From Naegleria gruberi (Eukaryota), in NCBI GenBank assembly GCA_000004985.1, contig GG738857.1: DNA of 64,000 bases; one strand, 5' to 3'. A program made the position numbers and the translations under genes. Below are positions 5,978-63,675 of this stretch, piece after piece. The notes beneath the pieces were generated by a model that did not search any database, had not been told where the DNA came from, and saw nothing but the letters and a program-made list of their open reading frames with translations. Positions within the stretch are counted from its first letter, which is position 1. The number at the start of each line of letters is the position of its first letter.

Positions 5978-6058
5978 GCAGACTTGGCCGAGAGGTTAAG
6001 GCGCGAGACTCGAAATCTCGTGGGGAAACCTTCGTAGGTTCGAATCCTGCAGTCTGCG
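5978..6058 (+). tRNA. tRNA-Ser(CGA): tRNA-Ser (anticodon CGA), class II with long variable arm
   Basis: Folds as an 81-nt cloverleaf. Acceptor GCAGACT/AGTCTGC, anticodon stem CGAGA/TCTCG with loop CT-CGA-AA, 13-nt variable region, T arm GTAGG-TTCGAAT-CCTGC, discriminator G. Confidence 0.9.
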
Positions 6059-6411
6059 ACTGACTTTTACTTTCTCCCAATATCAGCGATCTTTTCTCCC
6101 GTTGTTTAACTTTAAATACTTCAACTTTCTATATCTTCACATCCACAACTGTTATACTATCATATCTGAAAATATTACCTCTCTTCTCCAAGTAATTATC
6201 TAGAACGAGCTGTTCTAAACTGTCGATAGGTTTTTTAGCTTGAACTTTTCTTCGTCAAAGAGTTGGGACTATGCAGATGTGGAGAGTGTATGTGAAGAGA
6301 ATCTTGATAAATGTAATTATTGTGCTCATAGGAATGTTGAGCAAAAGTCTAGTTGTTATGTTTTTCTGCAAATATGAAATTGAAATTGCAAATAAAGTTC
6401 ATTAATAAAAA

Positions 6412-7353
6412 ATGTCGCAACTTGAAGACCCATCTTGATAAATTCTCTTCCCATAGAATTAATTTTGGATATTTATTCATTTTGCAATTTGGATGATTTA
6501 CGTAATTTAATGTTGTCTTTTTCACAATTTTATGAATTGTTGAAAAGTTCGGAAGCATATAGAGTGTGGATGATTCAATTACATCATCTCGATCTTATAC
6601 GAAACTCGAAAGAGAGAAAAACAAGGAAACAATTCAAGAATTTTTCCTTTTTGGAATTGAGTGATAATTTCGAAAGAGTTGGAAAGAATGGTTCCATTGA
6701 AAATAGAACGACAGTAATAATGAAGGTAATTCGTAAACAGTTACATTATTGTATTTTGAAGGAATTGGGTAGTGCAACTTTTTTAGAGAAATGCCATGAA
6801 AGACCAAGGTATTTGGAGGATTTTAGAGATTTGGTGATTGAAAAATTGACCAAAACTTGTGTCATTACATCGATGAATAGATATTTACTGGAATATGATC
6901 CATTCTATTTGTTTAAATATTCTAGTACAAGTACGATTGATCAGATCTTTTTGCAAACAGTTTGTAGATTTATGTTTTTGACAGAAAGTAGTTCTTTTGG
7001 AAGTGATAGTCCATTTCTCCAAACTTGGAAAAAAATGTCAAATAATCAATTGGAACCTAATGTTAAAATTTGGAAGGAAGTTTACCAGAAAAGGTTTTGC
7101 AAGAATACCAAAGCTTGTTTGTTGGCCTATTCAACTGCCTTATTATTTACATGACGGAGAATACAAGACAGCTAGTGAGTTGGTGAAAGAAGAGGGCAGA
7201 TTGAAATGGTTACCACGTTTCATTGAAGAGTTTGAATGTGGTGAAGAATTCAAAAATTTGACGAATCCAAACTGTGAGGAAGCATTAGGATACTGCCAAC
7301 ACTATTTCTACAAGTTCAATATCAATACTGGAAAAAGGCAGTACTTTTATTAA
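6412..7353 (+). CDS. F-box protein, with two unresolved reading-frame changes
   Basis: F-box 'SLPIELILDIYSFCNLDDLRNLMLSFSQFYELL' lies in ORF 6435..7154. The only well-placed ATG (6412, AAAAAATG) is in a different frame and hits TGA after 8 codons. The C-terminal part continues in ORF 6997..7353. That junction needs either a 52-nt GT-AG intron (7062..7113) or a 1-nt change in the T4 run 7095..7098. Confidence 0.5.
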
Positions 7354-7437
7354 CCTGAACAAAGGACTGATTCACTTGGAATATTTACTTAGTTTATCTT
7401 ATAAATAGTTCAATATTATGATTTTTGTATTGTGGTT

Positions 7438-7555
7438 GGCTACGGCCATATCACGATGAATGCACCTCATCCCGTCCGATTTGAGAAGTTAAGCATCGTC
7501 GAGCCACATCAGTACTGAGGTTGGAGACAACTTGGGAACCTGTGGTGCTGTAGTC
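7438..7555 (+). rRNA. 5S ribosomal RNA
   Basis: 118 nt matching the eukaryotic 5S pattern (GGCTACGGCCATATCAC...GAAGTTAAGC...AGTACTGAGGTTGGAGACAACTTGGGAA...GTGCTGTAGTC). The termini pair to form helix I. A T5 run (7556..7560) follows immediately, typical of a Pol III terminator. Confidence 0.85.
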
Positions 7556-7730
7556 TTTTTAGTGAGCTTTTTCAATTTCCTTTTGAACAATAATTCAATA
7601 GGACATTAATACAGTTGCTTAATAGTTTAAGCAAAGAGAGTATAATTTCCTGCGAAATAAGATTTATTGAACATTGTAGTTTTAATACTTTAATACGGAG
7701 AAAATCCCCTTAATTGTTTTTCAAAAAAAA

Positions 7731-8876
7731 ATGGCTGAAACACTATTGTTCTCAACTCATAACCAAGCTGTACGGAAGAATATTGAACATTGGAAAACTT
7801 ACATCCACAAAAAAACTAATTTCTTAAAGGAAAACAAACTTTTCTTTAAATCACGAATGTCTGAAAATATGGAACAACGAAGCAGATTATTATATGATGT
7901 TTTATCTCCCGAGCAAAGAGAAGAAATAATTATTGATAAGTTTGTTCTTGATTTGTTTCTGATATGGAATGTACAAGATTACTATGATGATCTTGAGAAA
8001 AGCTTTCAAGTTCCGTTTTTTTTGAATGACCATTTCGATAAATATACCATGTACAGCTTGCTGTTTTTTAGAAAGATATTGTTTGAATCTGATTCTTATA
8101 TGGAGGAATACATTAGAGAATACCCAAAGATAGCAATTTATTCTCCCATGTTCAAATGTTTTTCTAGTTTTGTAAAGGAAGAATATGACTTGAAGAGTAA
8201 GAGATCCTCAATGTTAAATCACATTCCCTTCTTGAATTTCATTATTAAGCTTTTTAATTCTATGGGAGTTGAAGTTAAGGTGAATGATTATTTAAGAGAT
8301 GAGAATGGAAATATCCTAGTCAATCAATTACTAGCAATTAGCTATGAACAATTTAATATGTGTGGAATAGTTTCAAATGACTTGTCAATAGAGAGTGAAG
8401 AGGAATGGAGAAACTGTATTTTCACTTCACACATAATGCAAAGAAAACAAACAAACTTCAAAAAAGGTAGTATGTTCTCTCTTTGTTTCATTATCCATGG
8501 TTGTAAAATTACTTTCTTTTGTTCACATCAACCTTATTCATTGGATTATTTCGTATTCAACAAGATTCAAACCTGGGACTTTTGCAATGTGGATCATCTT
8601 ATTGAAATAGTTGGATGCCTTTTCATGTTTATAAGTCTTTCGTGGATGAATTCAAAAACAAATCCTTTTGAATATAAAACTGGAGAGATTCTTTCTGCAA
8701 TGAACACTGTTGAACTTTATGAACAAAAACTAAAAGAAAAACAAAAATATGAACAGGAGAGACAACAGTATAGGATAATTAAGGAAAAGCATAGATTGTT
8801 AAAGAGAAAGGACAAAAAAATTAAGTTTACTGATAGTGTTATAGAGCAATTATTAAAATGTACAATTAATAAATAG
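7731..8876 (+). CDS. Hypothetical protein (381 aa), Lys/Glu-rich C-terminal tail
   Basis: Single long ORF starting at an ATG in an AAAAAAAAATG context. No recognisable domain. Confidence 0.55.
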   Translation: MAETLLFSTHNQAVRKNIEHWKTYIHKKTNFLKENKLFFKSRMSENMEQRSRLLYDVLSPEQREEIIIDKFVLDLFLIWNVQDYYDDLEKSFQVPFFLNDHFDKYTMYSLLFFRKILFESDSYMEEYIREYPKIAIYSPMFKCFSSFVKEEYDLKSKRSSMLNHIPFLNFIIKLFNSMGVEVKVNDYLRDENGNILVNQLLAISYEQFNMCGIVSNDLSIESEEEWRNCIFTSHIMQRKQTNFKKGSMFSLCFIIHGCKITFFCSHQPYSLDYFVFNKIQTWDFCNVDHLIEIVGCLFMFISLSWMNSKTNPFEYKTGEILSAMNTVELYEQKLKEKQKYEQERQQYRIIKEKHRLLKRKDKKIKFTDSVIEQLLKCTINK

Positions 8877-8991
8877 AATAACCAAAGTTTAAACACCTTC
8901 TGACCTAGATGTTGGTTAATTAAGAGATTTTAGGTTCCGATTTATTAAGATATTAAGACATTAGCATATTTTTATGAGGAATGAATAAGAT

Positions 8992-9063
8992 TCCCGTGTA
9001 GTCCAATGGCTAGGATACCTGGCTTTCACCCAGGAGGTCCGGGTTCAATTCCCGGCATGGGAG
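8992..9063 (+). tRNA. tRNA-Glu(UUC): tRNA-Glu (anticodon UUC)
   Basis: Folds as a 72-nt cloverleaf. Acceptor TCCCGTG/CATGGGA (one G-U pair), anticodon stem CCTGG/CCAGG with loop CT-TTC-AC, 4-nt variable loop, T arm CCGGG-TTCAATT-CCCGG, discriminator G. A T-rich tract lies downstream. Confidence 0.9.
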
Positions 9064-9707
9064 AATCATTTTGTTTATTATTCAAAAAACTAGTCTTAAT
9101 TCGTGATAGTTCCTGTTTGAGATTTTCGACCACAAGCTTAGGTCAGAAATTATTTCCTTCCAAACAATCCGATGGGATATCCTGTTGTTTTTCTTATCTA
9201 CCATTGACGCACTTGTCCCTTCTTCAATGAAACTGAATATTTTTAAAATTCTTACTTCATTCCAATAGAAATAGTTCTCATCTTCAACGCTTAGTGTTTT
9301 TAATTAAAAAATGAACAGTTCTAACTAATTTACTAGACTTGGGCTAGTTCCATTGTTTTCGTTTGTAAAAGCAAATGTCGAGATGTGGCCACATTTGACT
9401 CCTCAAAGAAATTCTTCGCTCAACAACAAATTCCATTTAACTTTTTTCGAATCGTAAAATAAATTAACAAAATAATCATGAAGTTAACAAGTATCTAAAA
9501 TAGTTTCTGACTACCATTCTAAACAAATAACTTTTCACAAGAATCATTTTCACATCATCAAGTACCCAATTACCCAACCAAAAAAAAATCATTCAATACC
9601 CTACCTCATCCTAGTCTGGTCAATTGATACGTATTGACGTTAATTTTCACAACAACACTCATCAACGCCTGTTTTCCATCAAAACTAATCAAAACTAATT
9701 CAAACTA

Positions 9708-20706: not shown

Positions 20707-23079
20707 TTACATGAATTGAGAAAAAAATTCCTCAATATTATCCAACACCTTGTCAAAAGTAACCTCTTTGAGTTCTTTTAGTGGTTCAAGATGCGAGACA
20801 TCATGATCTGTACGCTTCTCCTCATCGTCTGTACACTTCTCTTTATCCTCTTTCTTGCCAGATCTAAAATAACAAAAAGGAGTCCAATAGAATATTTCAC
20901 CAGCAGCCTTTCCACAAATAACAATGTCCTCAAACCCACAAACGATAGCACAATAGTGGAAATCGTACTTTCCTTTCACATAGTATAAATTCTTTTCCTT
21001 ATATTCAAAATCGTAGACATCACCAATTCCATCTGAATAAAATCTCATAGAATCTTGCAGAGCACGATATTTCTGCGAAAATATTGAGTCTCTCTGGATT
21101 GATCTATATTCTGCAATGAGATCTAAAACAAAACCATACACTTGATCTTTGATTTTTGGATTTCTTGTTTCGGCTACATCTCCATACTGATGATGAGTTG
21201 TCGGTTCCTCATCTACCCAAAATATTGTAAGAGGATCAAGATCTTCAACATCCCCTATTTGTGCTGGTTCAATTGAAGCAGATAGAGTCTTTCTTCTTCT
21301 TGTTGGTATTTCAATATTTTCCCAAACAGATTGATTCATCACAGATTCACAAGGATTTTCATCCTTTCTAATATTAATGAGGTATCCTCTAAGAAATACA
21401 ATACACATTACAGAATTACACAATGACTCAAAACTTAGTTCCTCAAGTCCTGAGATGTGTTTTTGCACTGCATTTTGCACAAGACAATCATCAGAGCCAA
21501 AGCATTCTTTCTCAAATATATTTTCTGCTGGATCTAAAATATGAATCTTGAAGAATTCGTAGGGGTTTGTTGAATCACTATCTTTTTCAGGTCTAAAATG
21601 TACAAGTTTAAACGTTCCACCATTTGACTTTCTCAAGGTTACTATATAGGTTTGTTCTCCATCATTATCATAACATTTTCCTGAAATGAATTGATTTGCA
21701 ATATGTGGTAAACAGAATTTGGTTGCAATTTCAGAGGAAACAGAGAAAGAGGCCACCGATCTATAAGTTAAATCCATTACATATTTGGCCATATTTTCAG
21801 TGTGTTGAGAATCATCTCCAAATTTCATTAAATCAATTAAGGAATCAATTTGATGCGTTAATGGACACCAACGATAATCCACACCATCCCTTTCCTCACG
21901 AAATTTCTCATTTCCAAAATAACTAACAGGTGCACGAAGCTGCTGTTGCTGATTTTGATTATTATTCTTTTTCTTCTTTTTACCTGGTTGTTGATTGACT
22001 GGAGGGGGTGGAGGTGGAGGTGGTGGAAGAGGAGGGGGTGGTGGATTTTTAGCATACTCATAAGAACTCAGAATGCAATCCAAATAACGATCTATCTTCT
22101 TAACGCCTGCAATTCCTAACATTATTCTAAAGAATACCTCCATTTGAAAATTTCCCCTAATTGTAAACAATAAATTGTCAAAAGAGCTATCAAATATTCT
22201 TTTCTGCGAAATTTCAACCAATTTTTCCAATGAGGAATCGTTCAATTCCCTTGCCAAATAATAATGACCAACTCCCCTTGTTAATTTCACATTCTGATGC
22301 AAGACAACTGGCTCATTAGCGCATGTGAAAAATTTCACATGAATTGATGAATAAATATCTTCTTCCTCCTCTCGCTCATCATCACCACTATCCTCGTCCT
22401 CCGAATGATAATAATCATCCCTGCAACTTTTTAATCTGCTTTTAATCTGAGTTTTTTGGATTTAAATAAATCTTGAAGTCAAAAATTTGCTTGACTTTTT
22501 TGCAGATTTTTTTGTTTTGATTAAAGCTGAAAAAAAAAACGTTCGTATAATCTTTGCGAGTTAATAGGTGTTTTTTGGTTTTATTTGAAGCCTGCTTTAT
22601 GGATTTAATTAAATCTTGTTGNNNNNNNNNNNNNNNNNNNNNNNNNNNNNNNNNNNNNNNNNNNNNNNNNNCAATAAAATCCCAACACTTCAATCAATCC
22701 ACTCTTGAAATAAAAGTTATGAGCATTCAATGAATGACAATTCACCTTTCCCAATGTTTCCTCAATATCATGAATCATCAATGGATGACTAAATTCCACA
22801 CCTTGTGCAATATATAAATTACGTAAAAAACCATCAAGTCTATATAACATTGCCTTTGCTTGTTTGTTTTTATCATTCATTTCATGAACATTTGAAGAGG
22901 AAGAATAATAGGCATGGAGAATCTACATAGGAGAGAATTGTATCAAGTATTTGAATACATGATGATAATGTTGTGAAGAGTGAAAACTTTTCATGTTTAG
23001 ATTCAATTTTCTTCTTTTTGTTCTTTGATTCAAATTCACTTGTTGGATCATCAAAATCTTCAACAAGTCTTTTTAACAT
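20707..23079 (-). CDS. Hypothetical protein with poly-proline tract; multi-exon, structure unresolved because of an internal gap
   Basis: The large ORF 20707..22338 stays open upstream to ~22461 without an ATG (acidic ...DDYYHSEDEDSGDDEREEEED...). ORFs 22605..22880 and 22882..23079 (ATG 23079 in AAAAAAAATG context) are probably upstream exons. A 73-nt GT-AG intron candidate would link the last two. The N gap 22622..22671 interrupts the model. Confidence 0.45.
22622..22671. other. Assembly gap (50 N)
   Basis: Run of N in the sequence. Confidence 1.
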
Positions 23080-46659: not shown

Positions 46660-48539
46660 CTACCAATTTGGTTGTGGATTTTTAGTTCTAGATTGATATT
46701 TTCTATCAAACATTTGATATAAATAACCTTCACACATTCCTTGTACTTTGTTGAAATGACATCTAACAAATGGATCAATTTTAGATGCTAAAATAGTTCT
46801 CTTAACATTTGGTCCTAAAATTGGTAATAAGAATTTCTTAAACCACCAATTACCACCTTTAGCATCTAATTGTAAATCAACCATTGTTGCCATAATATAT
46901 GGTGGAATATAAATTCTATAAACACGTGTTTGGAACTCTTCAAATGTTTTGTAATCAATTGTAGAAACATCTCTTCTTAAAATTTCATCTAAAATTAATT
47001 GACATTCTGTCATACATGTAACACCTTGTCCATAGACAGGATTTAATGATCCAACTATTTGCAATTAGTTAATGAATTAATCAATTAGTCAATTAGTAAA
47101 TGAATCAATCTTAATAAATCTTAATAAAATTGCTTACCTGAATCACCAAGTGCAAGGAAATTTTCAAGAACATGTTGATTTCCATTTTCATCCTTATATT
47201 GTGTAATCTTTTCCCAATGATTTAAAACAGTTCCATCCTTCTTATAATTTGACCAATCAATAACTGGACCTTGTTCTAAATCACAATGTTCAAAGAATAA
47301 TTTAGTCTTTTCTGAAATATCAGGTGAAACCTTACTTAAATAATCAATACAATCTTCATGATTCTTAATTTTAACACATTCTGGATTTTTACTACCAGTT
47401 TCACCAATAATAAACATTCCCTTATCTTGTGAAACTCTATAGTAAATCATACCACTTTTAGTTGGAAAACCAACATTACCAATATATGCCCAAACAGGTG
47501 TTTTACCATCTTTTTTAAAGAATCCATCTTGCATATTTGGATCTTTCAATTTGTAAATTGCTGAAGTGTAGGTTGTTGTGAGAATAATCTTACTCTTTTC
47601 CATTTCAAATTTTCTATTAGAATCTTTGGAAAATTCTTCTTCAACCCAAATTGGTGTTTGAGTTGTTAAACCTGAACAATCAATTACTAAATCTCCATAA
47701 ACTTGTTCACCTTCTTGTAATTTAACACCTTTAACACGATGAATAATTTTAGAATCTTGTGTTTGAACCTTTTCAAATATTAAACCACTAACTGTTTGAT
47801 CATCTCTGAATTGAATTTTACCCAATGGTGATGAATTTTCATCAATAGTACTACTATTATTACTACTATTATTACTATTACTATTATTATTGGTGTTGAC
47901 ATTAGTTGAAGTAGATGATTTTCCAATTAATGATGAAGAATTCTTATTAATATTCATAATTAAATCTCTAATATAAGATTCAATTTGATATCTTGTCATT
48001 TGATAACCAGGTGGACAAATAGTTTGACCTTCAATTAAACCACATAATTTATCAGATTTACCATCAATGGCAGCATAATCTGTATTTTCAATTAAAATTT
48101 TAAAAGCTCCCATCTTTTCAATTTCATTAATAAAATCAATATTTAAATAACCACCAAATAATTTCTTGAAAATTGTAATACATCTCAATAAAAAAATGTG
48201 AGTTTGAGTTCCTTGTGGAGCAGTTGACTATTACAATAATATTTAATATTAAATATTAAATTACAATATTTAACATACCTTGTTAGTTTCATATCTCTTC
48301 TTTTCAAATAAAATAACATTTTCAAAATGGAAACAAGCATTGAGTGCAGTTGTAATACCACCAATACTACCACCAATAATAATACATGTACCTTTCTTTT
48401 TCTTATCTGAAACTTGTCCAAGTTTAGAATTTTCCAATTTGACTTGAGCATCAAAGAATGGTTTAATATTATTTAACCAATAATAATAGGCATAACATGG
48501 AAGTGCAACTAGTGCAGACAATGCAAGATATCCTAACAT
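46660..48539 (-). CDS. FAD-dependent oxidoreductase/monooxygenase-like protein with N-terminal membrane anchor
   Basis: Exons 48279..48539, 47138..48227 and 46660..47054, with introns of 51 and 83 nt. Motifs: TM anchor MLGYLALSALVALPCYAYYYW; Rossmann CIIIGGSIGGITTA...VILFEKK; PQGTQTHIFL; and the GD motif split by an intron, LALGDS|VGSLNPVYGQGVT. An Asn/Ser-rich insertion is present. Confidence 0.7.
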
Positions 48540-49180
48540 TTTGGACTATAGTATAGTTTAGGTGTTGAATTAATAATTATAAATATATTTGTATATTGGA
48601 GTGGTGTTATATGATGAAGTGGAGAAGAGTAATATGAATCAACCATTCGTTATATGGTTTAATAGTAATAGTTGTTGTTGTGATAATGATGAGAGGAATG
48701 GAGCGGCTATTAACACTTACTTTTTTTTCTATTCGAAAGATTTTAATTGATGCGTGCTGGAATGCTGTCATTCGATTGATTTGGAAAGCTACTTTGAAAG
48801 ATGGTAGTCAAAATACGGTATGAAACCTTCAACAGTTGATTATCAGATCTGATTACGAATTTTTCAAAAGGCTTTATGAAATTACTGTGAAATAATTGAT
48901 GAAAATATTATTTCTCAGAACTGGTAATTATTTGGTACCGAGTATTACGACATCTACTGTTACTTTACAGTTTTCCGATTTCAACAGCATCATCAAATGA
49001 GAAAAGCCTTATTCCTTGTTACTCCTTCATCAAACACAGATTGTGCTCACTATTAAAAATCAAATGCATTTTTTTAATAATCTAGATTATTGATAAGAAT
49101 TTTAGCAAACCAAAATGCAATCGAATTAAAATCTGCTCAAACAACTAGTTCTTTCGAATACGTTATTCATGATTGAAAAT

Positions 49181-49340
49181 GGATGTGTAGCTCAGTTGGA
49201 AGAGCAAGGAAAACTAGTCCAAGCTGTGTATCAAGTGAAGTGGATGGGAGATGGATGGGAATAAAACTTGATTAAAAAACAGCTAGACTCTGGGACAGAT
49301 CCCAGGCCCCTGGTCGCACGATCGAAACGTGTCACATCCA
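49181..49340 (+). ncRNA. tRNA-like Pol III-type gene: tRNA 5' and 3' halves separated by ~110 nt that do not fold as a canonical anticodon arm
   Basis: The 5' end GGATGTG-TA-GCTC-AGTTGGAA-GAGC gives an acceptor strand plus D arm (A box). The 3' end GCACG-ATCGAAA-CGTGT-CACATCC-A gives a T arm (B-box-like) plus a complementary acceptor strand. The T5 run 49350..49354 lies 10 nt downstream of the gene end. The interior contains a long hairpin (AGTCCAAGCTGT ... ACAGCTAGACT). I could not find a 5-bp anticodon stem consistent with a 37/38 intron. Confidence 0.4.
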
Positions 49341-49413
49341 ATAATATTAATTTTTCATATAAATTGATTGGCAAACAAATATCAACTATGACTAAAATAG
49401 TTTATTTACAATT

Positions 49414-50790
49414 TTAGTAACTTTCTATTACACACGCTTTTAAAGATGAAATAATTATTTCAAATTGTTGTGAACAATTAATATTATGATTTCTTTCTTT
49501 GCAAAATTCAATTAATGGAATAAAATTAGCAAGAAAATGAGTTGTAAAAAGAGATCTCTCACCAATTTCAGTTTTAAATTCATTCTCCAAATTGCTAGAA
49601 TCACAGCAATCGTCACAAATATCAAATGAATCATAACCATCCACTGTTGATTGATAAAATCCTGAACATGTTTGATCACATATTTTACATGTCTTTGTTG
49701 ATTCAATTTTAAAAATATCAAAATTATTTCCATACTTTTGTTTCATGTTTGGAATCAAGTTACTTATTTCTGATGGTAAATGATTTAATAATTCAAAATA
49801 TTGTAAAAATTCAACAATACTTCTTCCTACACATGTCAATTTGTGATCATTTAGGTATGATTTGATTAACCATTTTAGTGATTCTTCCATATTTGGCAAT
49901 GTACCAACACCAACACAATACATGTAAGCTACTCCATATTGTGCAAAGCAATAGTTTTGTTTGGCTGATTTTAACAACCATTCAAGTCCAAGTTTTAAAT
50001 CTTTTTCATAATATTCACCAGAATAGTAATAAATACCAATCCAATATTGAGCTAAACAATTTCCATTTCCAGCAGATTTGAAATACCAATCTGTTGCTTT
50101 TTTGAACTCTTCATTAAGTCTATAATGTCTAGCGAGTTTATGTTGATATTTACTATTTCCTAATTCAGCTCCTTTTAAAAGCCATTTTTCTTTCATTTCT
50201 GATGAATTTTTGTTTAATTTTTTCATTTTCTTTATGGCAGGAAAATAATTTAATTCTGCTGATTTTTCCAAAAATGTAATATCCTTATTATATAAATAAA
50301 TTAAATAGTTAAAAATTGGATTATTGGTTTGTTTGGCACATTTTTTATAAACCTTGTTCAATTTAATTCTACTTTTAATATTTGGTAAATCAATTTCAAA
50401 TTTTTTTAATTGTTTAATAATTGAATTTGGAGAAATAATTAATTTTTCCAATACTTTTAAACTAAAATCACCACTTAAATATAATTTTTCCAATTTTGTA
50501 AATAATTTACAATTAAAAATAGTTTTTAACATTTCAGTATTTACATTATTAAAACTACATTTACAAATTTGTAATACTATTTGACTATTACAAAATTTTT
50601 CCATATCCGAAAGTGAAACAAAACGTGTAGAAACCATTTTCAATTTTAAATAGTAATAAATAGACATATCAGACCAATATTTACAAACAAGTCTATGAAC
50701 CAACCATTCATTTGGTAGATAACTTGAAATGTGTGCTAAAATCTCAGGTGGAATTTCATCATTGAAATTTCGTTTTGATAAATTAGACAT
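49414..50790 (-). CDS. F-box / Sel1-like repeat protein with C-terminal Cys-rich (ZZ-like) zinc-finger motif
   Basis: Single 458-aa ORF. F-box IPPEILAHISSYLPNEWLVHRLVCKYWSDM; Sel1-type repeats (GNSKYQHKLARHYRL..; GNCLAQYWIGIYYYSG..; NYCFAQYGVAYMYCVGVG); C-terminal CKICDQTCSG...FDICDDCCDS. Confidence 0.75.
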   Translation of the reverse strand: MSNLSKRNFNDEIPPEILAHISSYLPNEWLVHRLVCKYWSDMSIYYYLKLKMVSTRFVSLSDMEKFCNSQIVLQICKCSFNNVNTEMLKTIFNCKLFTKLEKLYLSGDFSLKVLEKLIISPNSIIKQLKKFEIDLPNIKSRIKLNKVYKKCAKQTNNPIFNYLIYLYNKDITFLEKSAELNYFPAIKKMKKLNKNSSEMKEKWLLKGAELGNSKYQHKLARHYRLNEEFKKATDWYFKSAGNGNCLAQYWIGIYYYSGEYYEKDLKLGLEWLLKSAKQNYCFAQYGVAYMYCVGVGTLPNMEESLKWLIKSYLNDHKLTCVGRSIVEFLQYFELLNHLPSEISNLIPNMKQKYGNNFDIFKIESTKTCKICDQTCSGFYQSTVDGYDSFDICDDCCDSSNLENEFKTEIGERSLFTTHFLANFIPLIEFCKERNHNINCSQQFEIIISSLKACVIESY

Positions 50791-58975: not shown

Positions 58976-61607
58976 TTAATAATTTGTACATCCATTTTCC
59001 TTCATGTACTTTTCTGCATCAAGTCTAGAAGTAAATGATTTAAATTTTGCTCCTTGAAATTGATCAACTTGAATTTTACATTCGTCCCACGTATTAAATA
59101 TACCTGTTCTTCTACCAATACAAACACAATATAATTTACCACTCTTTGACATTCCACTACTTCCACTTCCACTTCCACTACTACCATAACTTTTAGATGT
59201 ATTACTGTTACTGTTGGATGTTATTGCTCTTCCAGGATTAAGTTTTGATTTTTTCATAATTTGTGAATGATAAGATGTTCCACTCTGAGTAGAATTTGAA
59301 TCATTTTTACGTTTCTTTGTATTTCCACCACCACTTGTAAAATCTGATAAATCTAAATTTTGTAAAGTTTCTTCAAATATTTTTCTTCTCTTTTCAAAAG
59401 ATTCTTCATTCTTTTTTAATAAATTTTCAATAAATAAATCTTTTGAACTTGTATCTTGTGCTGAATATTGTTCTTGTTTTTTAAGTTTGTTATAAAAATC
59501 AATTGCTTCTCTATTTATATGTCTAGTTAAATTATATGAATTAAAATTTGTAACTTTTAAATATTTCATTGTTTTTGCACGTGATAATGCAACATAGATT
59601 TGACCTGGACTAAACACTGTTGATAAATCAATTACACATTTTTGTAATGTTAATCCTTGTGTTTTATGTACTGTCATGGCTATTATTATTAAATTTAAAA
59701 ATATAAAATATTAAATATTAAATATTAATATAAATTAAATATTAATATAAAAATATTAAATTATTAAATATTAAATTAAAAAACATACCATAAGCTAATT
59801 TTAAAGGAATTTGAATTCTAACACCTTTAGATTTTTTTGGACCATCTGTTTCAAAAATGGTAGGATGTACAATTTTAATAATTTTAATTTCCTTTCCATT
59901 TTCTTCTCTTGTAAAAACCACTTTTGGAAATAATTCACCATTTTCATTAATATATTGTTCAGCATATTGTTTAATATTCTTATTTGAACTTTGTAAATCA
60001 CTTGGTGTTTGTTTAATAAAACCAATAATTTCACCTCTTGTTCCATTCACTAATTGATTTGTAAAATCATTTTTAATTATCATTACTTGTGCTCCAATAC
60101 GTAAATTAATTTCCTGTGATGCATTAGATGAATTAAAATTTGTTAATATAGCACTTTTAATATATTCTTTAATAGTTGGATGATCTACTTTTGGATCATA
60201 ATCTCCATATGAAAAAAATGTTTGATCTCTATAAGTATATTGTGGTGGTGATAATTTTAATAATTCTGTATCATTCACTGTATCTACATTCTTATTTAAT
60301 GTATGAATAACTGTTGCCTTTTCAATTCCATCAAATTTATTATTTTCTAATCTTTTTAATGTTTGTACTATATTATTATTAGTTTGACAACATCTAATAG
60401 AATTTAATATTGATATCCATTCTTTTTCTTCCTGTCTAAATACATTACTCAATTCAAATGTATATTTAATTGTACGTTCCCAACATGTAGCTTTAAAACA
60501 CATTTCCTTTTTTTGATAAATAGTTTCACCATGTTCATTTTTAAATGATTTACTAACAGGTGGTAACTATAAATATATTTGATAGATTTTGAATAGATAT
60601 TGTAGTAGAATTATTATTATTAGATTAGATTAATGTGAATATGAATATTATATTTTGAGATTAAATTGAATGGTATTAGATTTGATTGGTGTGAATATGA
60701 TTGAAAATCATTAAAAAAAACAAACCTGTAAGAAATCACCACATAAAATAACTTGAATTCCACCAAATGCAGGTAATTGTTTCATAATAACTTCTTTAGG
60801 TGCTCTAGATGCAGCAATTTCAAAGAAACATCTAATTTCAGTTGCAATTGATTCTAATTGATCAAAATATTGACCATCAATCATTGAAATTTCATCAACA
60901 ATTAAAACATCAACACTTCTCCATTCTTTTTCATTTCTCCAAGCTGTTTTACTATCAACTTTACCATTATCCAATGTTCTAATACCTGCAAATGAGCTAA
61001 TTAATTTTTAAATAAAGTATTACAATATAATTACAATGTTAAATATAAGTATACTATAATAATTAGAAATATTTACATACTGTATAGTTGATCCACCAAT
61101 ATTAACAGCAGAAATACCAGTTGAAGCAGTCACCACAACTTTCTTTTGTTGAACATTTGATAAAGTTTGAATAATACATTCTAATAAGAAACTTTTACCA
61201 GTTCCAGCAACACCTGTAATAAAAACTGAATGTCCTTCCATTACACATTTCAAAACATTCATTTGTTCATCACTTAATTTTGATAACAAGCCTTGATAGG
61301 TATCACATTGATTTAAATCAAAACTAGCTAATTCGGGAAATATTGTTGAAGGTAATTCTTGTTGTTTACTTTTCAATTTCATATCATTTGCAAATGATGT
61401 AATTGATCCGAGTGTTTTTGGAGGTGCTTTAGTTGTTGTTGCTGTTGATGTTGTTGTACTATTACTAACACCAGTACTAAAGGAAGGCTTTTTAGATGCT
61501 GAAGCTTTCTTAATTTTAGGTGGTGCACCTCCTCCGGAAGAAGGCATTGATCTTGGTTTTGGCTTTGCATTTGCAGGTACAAATACTACTCCATTCTTTT
61601 CTAACAT
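58976..61607 (-). CDS. PIF1-family 5'-3' DNA helicase fused to a C-terminal RNase H1-type hybrid-binding domain (HBD / Cauli_VI-like)
   Basis: Exons 61081..61607, 60726..60996, 59789..60566 and 58976..59679, with introns of 84, 159 and 109 nt, all phase-consistent. Helicase motifs are restored across junctions: Walker A GVAGTGKS; GGSTI|H SFAGI; LIVDEISMI; LCGDFLQ|LPPV; LAY|AMTVHKTQGLTL; GQIYVALSRAK. The C-terminal 45 aa (LYCVCIGRRTGIFNTWDECKIQVDQFQGAKFKSFTSRLDAEKYM) match the HBD pattern. I place the start at ATG 61607. Confidence 0.8.
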
Positions 61608-62226: not shown

Positions 62227-63675
62227 ATGAATAACCGATTACTTGATGATGATCATGACGATGATAATGATTCACTCCTTACACCTGGATTAAATCAACA
62301 ACAACAACAACAACAAGCCTTCAGTAAGTCAACAAATCCAAACTCAACTAGTAGTTTACACGACCGATATGATGATGATGATGATATTTCTGGTGATGAA
62401 TATTTACCTCATAATTCACTATTATTGAATAATCAAAAAGACTCCAATACAACACAAGCCTCTAAAACAAATAAGAAATGGTGGAATTTAAAAAAGGATC
62501 GTAAATCACACGTCGTTTGTTGGATGATGATTTTAGGATCTGGATTATTATTGACTTCTATTGGTATCGTTTCAATGGTTTTATTAGTCATTTACTCTCC
62601 AACTCCAAAGGAAATGTATGTTTTCATATCGTTTTGATATATTTAAATAATAATATTATTTTTTACTTCAATATTTTTTATTCAATTAAATGAATGAAAA
62701 AATTTTGTAATAATTTTAATAATAATTTTAATAATAATTTAAAAATAGTTTGAATGGTACAAGTCCAATTAGTGAAAAACAATGGAAAGAAATAGTATTA
62801 GAAACATTTGGAGTAGTGAGTGGATTTGTTATTGGTATTGGAATAGTTTTATCAGTTACACNNNNNNNNNNNNNNNNNNNNNNNNNNNNNNNNNNNNNNN
62901 NNNNNNNNNNNNNNNNNNNNNNNNNNNNNNNNNNNNNNNNNNNNNNNNNNNNNNNNNNNNNNNNNNNNNNNNNNNNNNNNNNNNNNNNNNNNNNNNNNNN
63001 NNNNNNNNNNNNNNNNNNNNNNGCACAATTGTCATCTCAATTGAATCACAACAAGAAACAGCAAGTCAAGCTCAAAGAGAAGTTGGTACTAAATCAACTT
63101 CAGTGATTGCTGTATTGAAGAATATTAATTTTGTAACAAAATTAAGAACTGCCTCTATTACATTATATCCAATTTATCCATCAACATTGAATCCATCTGT
63201 TACAATACCATATAATGAAAGTATGAGAATTGTTGGATATAAATCATCTAATACTATTTCATTCACAGTTACAAGTTTAACAATTATTGGTGAAGTATTG
63301 GATAAATTAATTGAATTGGGTGTAACACAAATATCAAGTATTAATATGCAAGCAAATGAAACAGCTGTTAATAATGCACGTGAACAAGCTCTTTCATTGG
63401 CTGTACAAGATGCTAAATCTAAAATTGAAAAAGTTGTTGCAACATTGAATCCTGATTTAACCATTGAAACTATTAGAAGTAGAATGTATACCTATGATGT
63501 TAATATTGATAGTGTTAATAGACCAATTCCAATCGCATTCCCTTATTTTGCTCAAGGTGCTTCATATAGAATGGATGCTGCTCAATCACAATCTGTTCCA
63601 GTAGTAGGTGGTGATCAGACTATTGATTCATATGTTACTGTAAAGATGGTTTTTAGACAACAACAACAACAATAG
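62227..63675 (+). CDS. Membrane-anchored SIMPL/DUF541-domain protein (interrupted by an assembly gap)
   Basis: Exon 1 is 62227..62615, followed by a 133-nt intron 62616..62748 (phase 2). Exon 2 runs 62749..62861, then the gap, then 63023..63675. Two hydrophobic segments (VVCWMMILGSGLLLTSIGIVSMVLLVIY; VVSGFVIGIGIVLSV). The C-terminal ~200 aa follow the DUF541 pattern (...ITLYPIYP...IVGYKSSNTISFTV...LIELGVTQISSI...AREQALSLAVQDAKSKIEKV...). Confidence 0.6.
62862..63022. other. Assembly gap (161 N)
   Basis: Run of N inside the SIMPL-domain gene. Confidence 1.

Follow-up and report, generated by a model that had tools for sequence, protein, structure and literature searches.

A tRNA-shaped intergenic element of Naegleria gruberi with a two-hairpin domain in place of the anticodon arm

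Between two genes of Naegleria gruberi there is an intergenic element of 160 bases, 49181-49340 (+), whose two ends read like those of a tRNA gene and whose interior does not. This raises the question of what such a locus encodes: a true tRNA behind an unusual intron, a tRNA gene that has been disrupted and is now decaying, or an RNA of a different kind that is built on a tRNA body. In the present work, we examine these possibilities by means of folding calculations, tRNA and RNA-family searches, simulations and comparisons with related loci. We will show that the outer frame of a class-I tRNA is whole in the element, and that the anticodon arm is replaced by a domain of ca 100 nt consisting of two hairpins. 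The explanation that we put forward, and to which we give about even chances of being correct, is that the element is a tRNA-derived, single-copy RNA polymerase III (Pol III) unit whose product would be a non-decoding, tRNA-shaped RNA of ca 160 nt.

The window, i.e. the whole stretch of 64,000 nucleotides that was analyzed, is nuclear DNA of N. gruberi with ordinary cellular genes. Its G+C content is ca 31%, and the genes include those of a phospholipase C, BBS1, an Arf-like protein and a coronin/gelsolin/villin-headpiece protein. The element is located in an 874-bp spacer between two minus-strand genes, one FAD-like (ending at 48539) and one of the F-box/Sel1 type (49414-50790). The product of the latter has 100% identity, over its full length, to an N. 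gruberi protein at NCBI. The RNA genes of the window and the parts of the element are the following:

5978-6058 (+): tRNA-Ser(CGA) gene, from ARAGORN/Rfam
7438-7556 (+): 5S rRNA gene, from ARAGORN/Rfam
8991-9064 (+): tRNA-Glu(TTC) gene, from ARAGORN/Rfam
49181-49187 (+): 5' strand of the acceptor stem, GGATGTG, tRNA positions 1-7, from sequence and fold
49188-49205 (+): U8, A9 and the D arm GCTC-AGTTGGAA-GAGC, the D arm itself being 49190-49205
49206-49215 (+): A26 and the linker AGGAAAACT, of which AGG (49207-49209) can pair with CCT (49309-49311)
49216-49289 (+): hairpin 1, 74 nt, AGTCCAAGCTGT...ACAGCTAGACT, pair probabilities 0.7-1.0
49290-49305 (+): hairpin 2, CTGGGA-CAGA-TCCCAG, pair probabilities 0.78-1.0, z -2.7
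49306-49315 (+): GCCCC linker and variable-loop-like TGGTC with G45, G46 and C48, read from the sequence
49316-49332 (+): T arm GCACG-ATCGAAA-CGTGT, pair probability about 0.76
49333-49340 (+): 3' strand of the acceptor stem, CACATCC (49333-49339), and the discriminator A73 (49340)
49351-49355 (+): TTTTT, likely Pol III terminator, 11 nt 3' of the discriminator

The first three of these form a Pol III cluster of 3.1 kb (5978-9064), in which all genes are on the plus strand and ORFs are interleaved.

We begin with the outer frame. The acceptor stem GGATGTG/CACATCC has Watson-Crick pairs at all seven positions, with pair probabilities of 0.98-1.0, and the D stem follows with 0.77 (D and T arms: ca 0.76). 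The segment 49188-49205 contains the A-box-like TAGCTCAGTTGG together with A14, G15, G18, G19, A20 and A21, and this 18-mer occurs once in the window, where the chance expectation is 0. Directly 5' of the T arm there is a normal-looking variable loop of 5 nt, TGGTC at 49311-49315 (UGGUC in the RNA), and the T arm holds the B-box-like GATCGAAAC at 49320-49328, the pair G53-C61, the nucleotides U55, C56 and A58, and also A54 and A60. The tertiary interactions of class-I tRNAs are established from crystal structures, and all of the partners are present here: U8-A14, A9-U12-A23, G10-C25-G45, C13-G22-G46, G15-C48, G18-U55, G19-C56 and G53-C61. The sole departure from this core is the replacement of T54 by A54. 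The minimum free energy fold obtained with ViennaRNA gives the acceptor stem, the D and T arms and both inner hairpins, at -47.4 kcal/mol (z -2.3), and most pairs of the hairpins have probabilities of 0.8-1.0.

How often such a frame turns up was assessed with a scan for a T arm that is directly followed by the strand closing a 7-bp acceptor stem, and that is accompanied by U8 and a D arm within at most 400 nt. Only two matches were obtained in the 64-kb window, namely the true tRNA-Glu gene and the element, and none on either strand in 200 first-order Markov simulations of the window. The frame of the element is real, and far beyond chance.

The ca 100 nt that stand in place of the anticodon arm are made up of the 74-nt hairpin, the 6-bp hairpin and linkers. 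The initial annotation of this locus, made from the sequence alone, gave ca 110 nt for the insert, which holds as the length between the D and T arms; that figure includes the variable loop UGGUC, however, and the foreign part amounts to ca 100 nt. Hairpin 1 consists of the helices AGTC/GACT, AGCTGT/ACAGCT and ATCAAGT/ACTTGAT and a G-rich loop of 29 nt, in which GGATGGGA appears twice (49242-49249 and 49253-49260); the sequence antisense to the G-rich loop is 5'-TTCCCATCCATCTCCCATCC-3'. When folded alone, this hairpin reaches -15.3 kcal/mol (z -2.1), and 4% of the shuffles are equally stable. Hairpin 2 is perfect, with 6 bp and a 4-nt loop or, alternatively, 5 bp and a 6-nt loop, and in neither form is this a 7-nt anticodon loop. 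While each inner hairpin exceeds 96-98% of shuffles in stability, the complete insert has no excess stability over its shuffles (z -0.6). The inserted domain would be closed by a 3-bp helix between AGG and CCT, which forms in the insert folded alone and has a probability of only ca 0.1 in the full-length ensemble. All the parts that had been pointed out earlier, i.e. the acceptor stem, the D arm, the T loop ATCGAAA, the T5 run downstream, the hairpin and the duplication inside it, are indeed found in the sequence, and the general description, that of a tRNA-like gene whose outer halves are intact and whose interior is not tRNA, was right.

It should be mentioned that the arms of hairpin 1 have a TIR-like look, with a flanking repeat of only 2 nt (CT); a MITE has TIRs together with a target-site duplication. 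A MITE or other repeat finds no support in the range searched, as blastn-short of the element and its insert against the window and all loci gave nothing beyond 12-mers, and hence no other copy of either in the 64 kb.

We now turn our attention to the question of whether the element could yield a tRNA. ARAGORN at its default threshold does not call the element, with or without introns allowed, and Rfam has no family for it at the gathering threshold or at E<=10 in three nested ranges down to 190 nt; the only Rfam match, SNORD75 (E=5.4, 11 bits vs a gathering score of 50), is noise. Used in place of tRNAscan-SE, the two programs thus gave a negative answer to the check for a standard intron-containing tRNA that might have been missed. 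We also cut each possible segment in turn out of the 110-nt stretch that separates the D arm from the T arm, and scored what was left for a 5-bp stem, a 7-nt loop and a variable loop of 4-6 nt. No paired 5-bp anticodon stem with a 7-nt loop was recovered in this exhaustive single excision. The best solution has four of the five stem pairs (AGGGA/CCCCT) and the loop UCCCAGG, with C33 and G37; the loop of a decoding tRNA has U33 and a purine at 37. An intron at 37/38 with an anticodon-intron helix was found neither by ARAGORN nor by the excision test, and inspection of the predicted structure showed no bulge-helix-bulge motif, which would consist of two 3-nt bulges with a 4-bp helix between them at the exon-intron junctions; hairpin 1 has one 2-nt and one 1-nt bulge. 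The absence of an anticodon stem-loop at the canonical positions, as noted from the start, is thus confirmed by ARAGORN, Rfam and the excision test. The RNA of the element cannot decode, as it lacks a 5-bp stem that carries an anticodon loop of 7 nt.

What the element may do instead is suggested by its promoter-like parts. The flanks are compatible with Pol III, and the A and B boxes are intact. TFIIIC would bind the A box at 49188-49199 and the initiator-type B box at 49320-49328, which are ca 120 bp apart, a spacing that TFIIIC tolerates; the B box has the form found in eukaryotic initiator tRNA genes. Pol III would then start just 5' of 49181 and stop at the T5 run. For comparison, runs of T4 or more are located ca 1-7 nt from the 3' ends of the two tRNA genes and the 5S gene of the window, and of two Willaertia tRNA genes. 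There is no TTTT inside the element, which carries little weight, since the same is true of 20% of random 160-nt windows. The ends of the transcript could be processed by RNase P, RNase Z and the CCA-adding enzyme by way of the intact acceptor/T minihelix and the D/T elbow, and the product would be a stable L-shaped RNA of ca 160 nt with a long, bifurcated "anticodon" limb. In this manner we infer transcription, processing and stability of the RNA. The element is a real, tRNA-derived gene that is probably transcribed by Pol III, and the chances that it gives an expressed tRNA-like RNA, whatever its function, are about half. This RNA would be either a selected non-coding RNA, of a tRNA-scaffolded regulatory or RNP type, or what is still transcribed from a copy of a tRNA gene that has recently suffered an insertion.

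There are several other explanations that have to be weighed against the Pol III unit. One is that the element is a true tRNA gene whose intron is very long and lies at a non-canonical site, for example that of a functional tRNA-Trp(CCA) that is spliced to 74 nt, as ARAGORN offers at thresholds of 80% or 70% with the intron after 31/32. At 80% the intron is 88 nt long and the stem is AGGAA/CCCCT with three of five positions paired, the "anticodon stem" being the AGG/CCT helix described above. The four pairs of the best excision also speak for a long intron, as does a giant-virus-like gene discussed below (L024/L060), in which an insert of ca 85 nt is found inside a properly paired anticodon stem. 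However, ARAGORN is silent at default even when introns are allowed, the two stem mismatches adjoin the loop, the loop UCCCAGG carries C33 and G37, and the proposed 3' splice site falls within the perfect hairpin 2. There is furthermore neither a bulge-helix-bulge motif nor a 37/38 position, and the D arm is presumably unlike that of eukaryotic tRNA-Trp, which counts against this parse. The long or non-canonically placed intron among the original suggestions thus has no valid excision behind it, and we consider it very improbable. Much more serious is the possibility of a dead or decaying tRNA pseudogene, which we regard as quite conceivable, although we do not favor it. It would derive from a duplicated, possibly initiator-like gene through one complex insertion or replacement in the anticodon region, and it would be functionless, with arms that are intact owing to its youth. 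The element is single-copy in the 64 kb and is recognized by no tRNA or RNA-family model, its insert is as a whole not unusually structured, and intact stems are equally expected of a very young pseudogene. Since N. gruberi has about 924 tDNAs (PMC2888827), occasional disrupted tRNA copies are to be expected. In Willaertia, the orthologue of the neighboring gene lacks an adjoining counterpart of the element, which is uninformative here, as the homology stops at 48799. What argues against a pseudogene is that the departures from a canonical tRNA are several and separate and that they all lie within the anticodon region (ca 84 nt inserted at 26/27, a loop of 6 instead of 7 nt, and 5 extra nt before the variable loop), whereas no change is seen at ca 56 structural positions, at any of the tertiary nucleotides, in either promoter box or in the terminator. 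The high stability of each inner hairpin relative to 96-98% of shuffles points in the same direction. With its A and B boxes intact, even a pseudogene ought to be transcribed.

Another option considered was a Pol III RNA that serves as an RNP scaffold, vault-RNA-like or otherwise, and in which a tRNA-shaped handle would be joined to a protein-binding or guide domain. The element shares with the vault RNAs (RF00006; trypanosome vtRNA) the type-2 Pol III layout, the terminal stem, the tRNA-like A-box region, the variable center and a similar size class. Known vault RNAs are 86-141 nt long, however, and the element is longer with its 160 nt. It has no sequence or covariance-model similarity to RF00006, and no match to this or any other Rfam family at E<=10. 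With complete D and T arms of its own and an acceptor strand that abuts the T arm, it is far more tRNA-like than vault RNAs, and the likeness that exists is generic to tRNA-derived Pol III genes. On the other side, vault RNAs are defined by A and B boxes inside the gene, by 5' and 3' ends that pair into a terminal stem, by a center that varies and by a T-run (PMC3762200), and the element has all four. [quoted passage not shown] No Naegleria vault RNA was found in the literature searched. We judge this possibility to be unlikely. After a functionless relic and an expressed tRNA-like RNA have received their share, the rest of the probability is divided between the vault-like RNP RNA and a true tRNA whose intron is unusual.

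Returning to the Pol III unit, a more far-reaching version is that of a functional "natural tRNA scaffold", in which the intact tRNA body would provide nuclear processing, stability and export and would display the 100-nt two-hairpin domain as an effector. Naegleria would then have in this RNA its missing small RNA of the vault/TEP1 or Ro type, or else Heterolobosea would have a new class of regulatory RNAs with a tRNA body. This must be regarded as speculative, and we give it only a small chance. If the element is expressed and conserved, it would constitute a clean eukaryotic case of a tRNA body reused to carry another RNA domain. It would then also be a concrete candidate for the small RNAs, vault-type or other, that Pol III makes in Naegleria, a eukaryote that branches deeply and has homologues of the major vault protein. 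Should it be merely a young disrupted tRNA copy, gene finders would still be overlooking an intact TFIIIC/Pol III site, and the locus would exemplify tRNA gene decay that proceeds from the anticodon arm inward.

It is instructive to compare the element with known systems. With nuclear class-I tRNA genes (RF00005), those with introns included, it shares the acceptor stem of 7 bp, the D arm, the variable loop of 5 nt, the T arm, the tertiary core, the A and B boxes, the discriminator base and the downstream T-run. The differences are that the element lacks the anticodon arm of 5 bp and 7 nt, that its insert is not at 37/38, and that the detectors are silent. A20, A54 and A60 are features of eukaryotic initiator tRNA-Met, with its T loop AUCGAAA, and the element has all three. 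In addition, the stem CUGGG/CCCAG of hairpin 2, with three G-C pairs, is identical to the anticodon stem of the human initiator. However, the initiator has A1-U72 where the element has G1-C72, and there is no CAU in the element, the loop being ACAGAU. The three adenosines are not diagnostic of an initiator either, because elongator tRNA-Asn genes from metagenomes have them too. An initiator origin is thus a lead and not a finding.

In tRNAs with bulge-helix-bulge introns (Archaea, Cyanidioschyzon, nucleomorphs) and in the split tRNAs of Nanoarchaeum the frame is broken outside 37/38, as it is here, but the element has no bulge-helix-bulge motif, and no single removal restores a tRNA. A split tRNA of the Nanoarchaeum type is rejected, as both halves are in one 160-nt stretch on one strand. 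The label "split tRNA" in the initial annotation is accordingly a misnomer, the halves being contiguous in one transcription unit and not separate genes. The topology is like that of tmRNA and bacterial YrlA, where the termini form an acceptor/T-arm module and foreign RNA takes the place of the anticodon arm. The element is a eukaryotic nuclear gene, however, and G3-U70, the alanine identity pair, is absent, as is a tag ORF, and pseudoknots were not detected; a tmRNA is rejected in view of A3-U70 and a negative ARAGORN tmRNA search.

SINE heads, tRNA pseudogenes and trypanosomatid companion genes resemble the element in that the A and B boxes are kept and the anticodon function is lost. A SINE head is a contiguous tRNA copy followed by a body and a tail, and it is multi-copy. 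In the element the tRNA part is not a contiguous 5' head, and the 64 kb contain no second copy of it or of its insert, so that the proposed SINE does not agree with the architecture and is not supported. Of the readings listed originally, a regulatory tRNA-derived RNA and a disrupted pseudogene therefore survive, while the intron and the SINE are unsupported. The tRNA-like companion genes of trypanosomatids lie ca 95 bp from a divergent small-RNA gene, and a companion promoter of this style is also rejected, there being no recognizable small-RNA gene or Rfam family upstream on either strand. The same holds for a box C/D snoRNA host, as the insert lacks both a C box (RUGAUGA) and a D box (CUGA). 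Telomerase RNAs of the Pol III type have a template of ca 1.5 telomere repeats. The candidate telomere repeat of N. gruberi is TTTGGG (PMC3622300), and a telomerase RNA is rejected, as the RNA strand of the element contains no permutation of CCCAAA.

Two scans with the frame pattern, one of metagenome and one of viral contigs, gave 78 loci, of which 76 are tandem tRNA-Tyr/tRNA-Asn genes and two (L024 and L060) contain a giant-virus-like frame gene. The 76 tandem loci (L002-L023, L025-L059 and L061-L079) come from estuarine and marine contigs, many of them classed as viral, and share a conserved tandem, in which a tRNA-Tyr(GTA) gene with an intron precedes a tRNA-Asn(GTT) gene. The T loop of the tRNA-Asn is ATCGAAA (A54/A60), and the "initiator-type" T loop is thus also present in elongator tRNAs.

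The gene in the other two loci (L060 204-349, plus strand; L024 1732-1877, minus strand) is a 146-nt tRNA-frame gene on a giant-virus-like linear contig. It has the same D arm and T loop as the element, but these were imposed by the search pattern. Beyond the pattern, the two have in common a 7-bp acceptor closure, a long insert (ca 85 nt in the viral-like gene) and an immediate T-run. They differ in that the insert of the viral-like gene is inside a paired anticodon-type stem, CCGGG/CTCGG, and the interior sequence is unrelated to that of the element. The gene lies ca 200-300 nt from the contig end and is followed by a run of T7-T10, and the two versions have the anticodon-like loops ACCCCAA and ACCTCAA, respectively. 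The neighboring genes on the contig encode a family-B DNA polymerase of 1609 aa and a RING-H2 protein. L024 (2119-2178 listed) ends in ciliate-type CCCCAA/CCCAAA repeats, and part of its insert is duplicated ca 150 nt upstream.

Finally, some observations were made on the surroundings of the element. For the F-box/Sel1 neighbor there is no eukaryotic orthologue among the matches, and the two best that were examined are bacterial loci. The FAD-like neighbor has one match, its orthologue in Willaertia magna, and the two genes (46661-48553 vs L001 9989-11909) have 81% DNA identity over the full length, introns included. The gene has no Pfam match, and the flanking genes of the two species are unrelated. 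The value of 81% is unusually high for two genera, and could reflect recent transfer or a mobile or viral origin. Upstream of the gene there is a conserved non-coding block (48701-48799 vs L001 9718-9823) with 72% identity over 108 nt. The block, with the core AACACTTACTTTTTTTTCT..TTCGAAA..GCGTGCTGGAAT, precedes the FAD-like gene by ca 160-260 bp in N. gruberi as well as in W. magna, and is probably the promoter or 5' UTR of this gene. The DNA homology ends at 48799, 380 bp before the element, and the finding of nothing tRNA-like in the Willaertia spacer is thus uninformative.

Within the spacer, ca 180 nt upstream of the element on the minus strand (48910-49003), a TGATGA (48995-48990) is followed ca 75 nt later by a CTGA (48918-48915). 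The pair is box C/D-like, but it has no convincing terminal stem and no Rfam match, and the resemblance is probably due to chance. As to the rest of the window, runs of N mark assembly gaps at 22622-22671 and 62862-63022, and between 50000 and 64000 the G+C content falls to 22-27%. In this last part, two adjacent ORFs on the minus strand (58976-60503) encode fragments of a Pif1-type helicase and an RNase H1 N-terminal (Cauli_VI) domain, and may be a Helitron-like or viral remnant.
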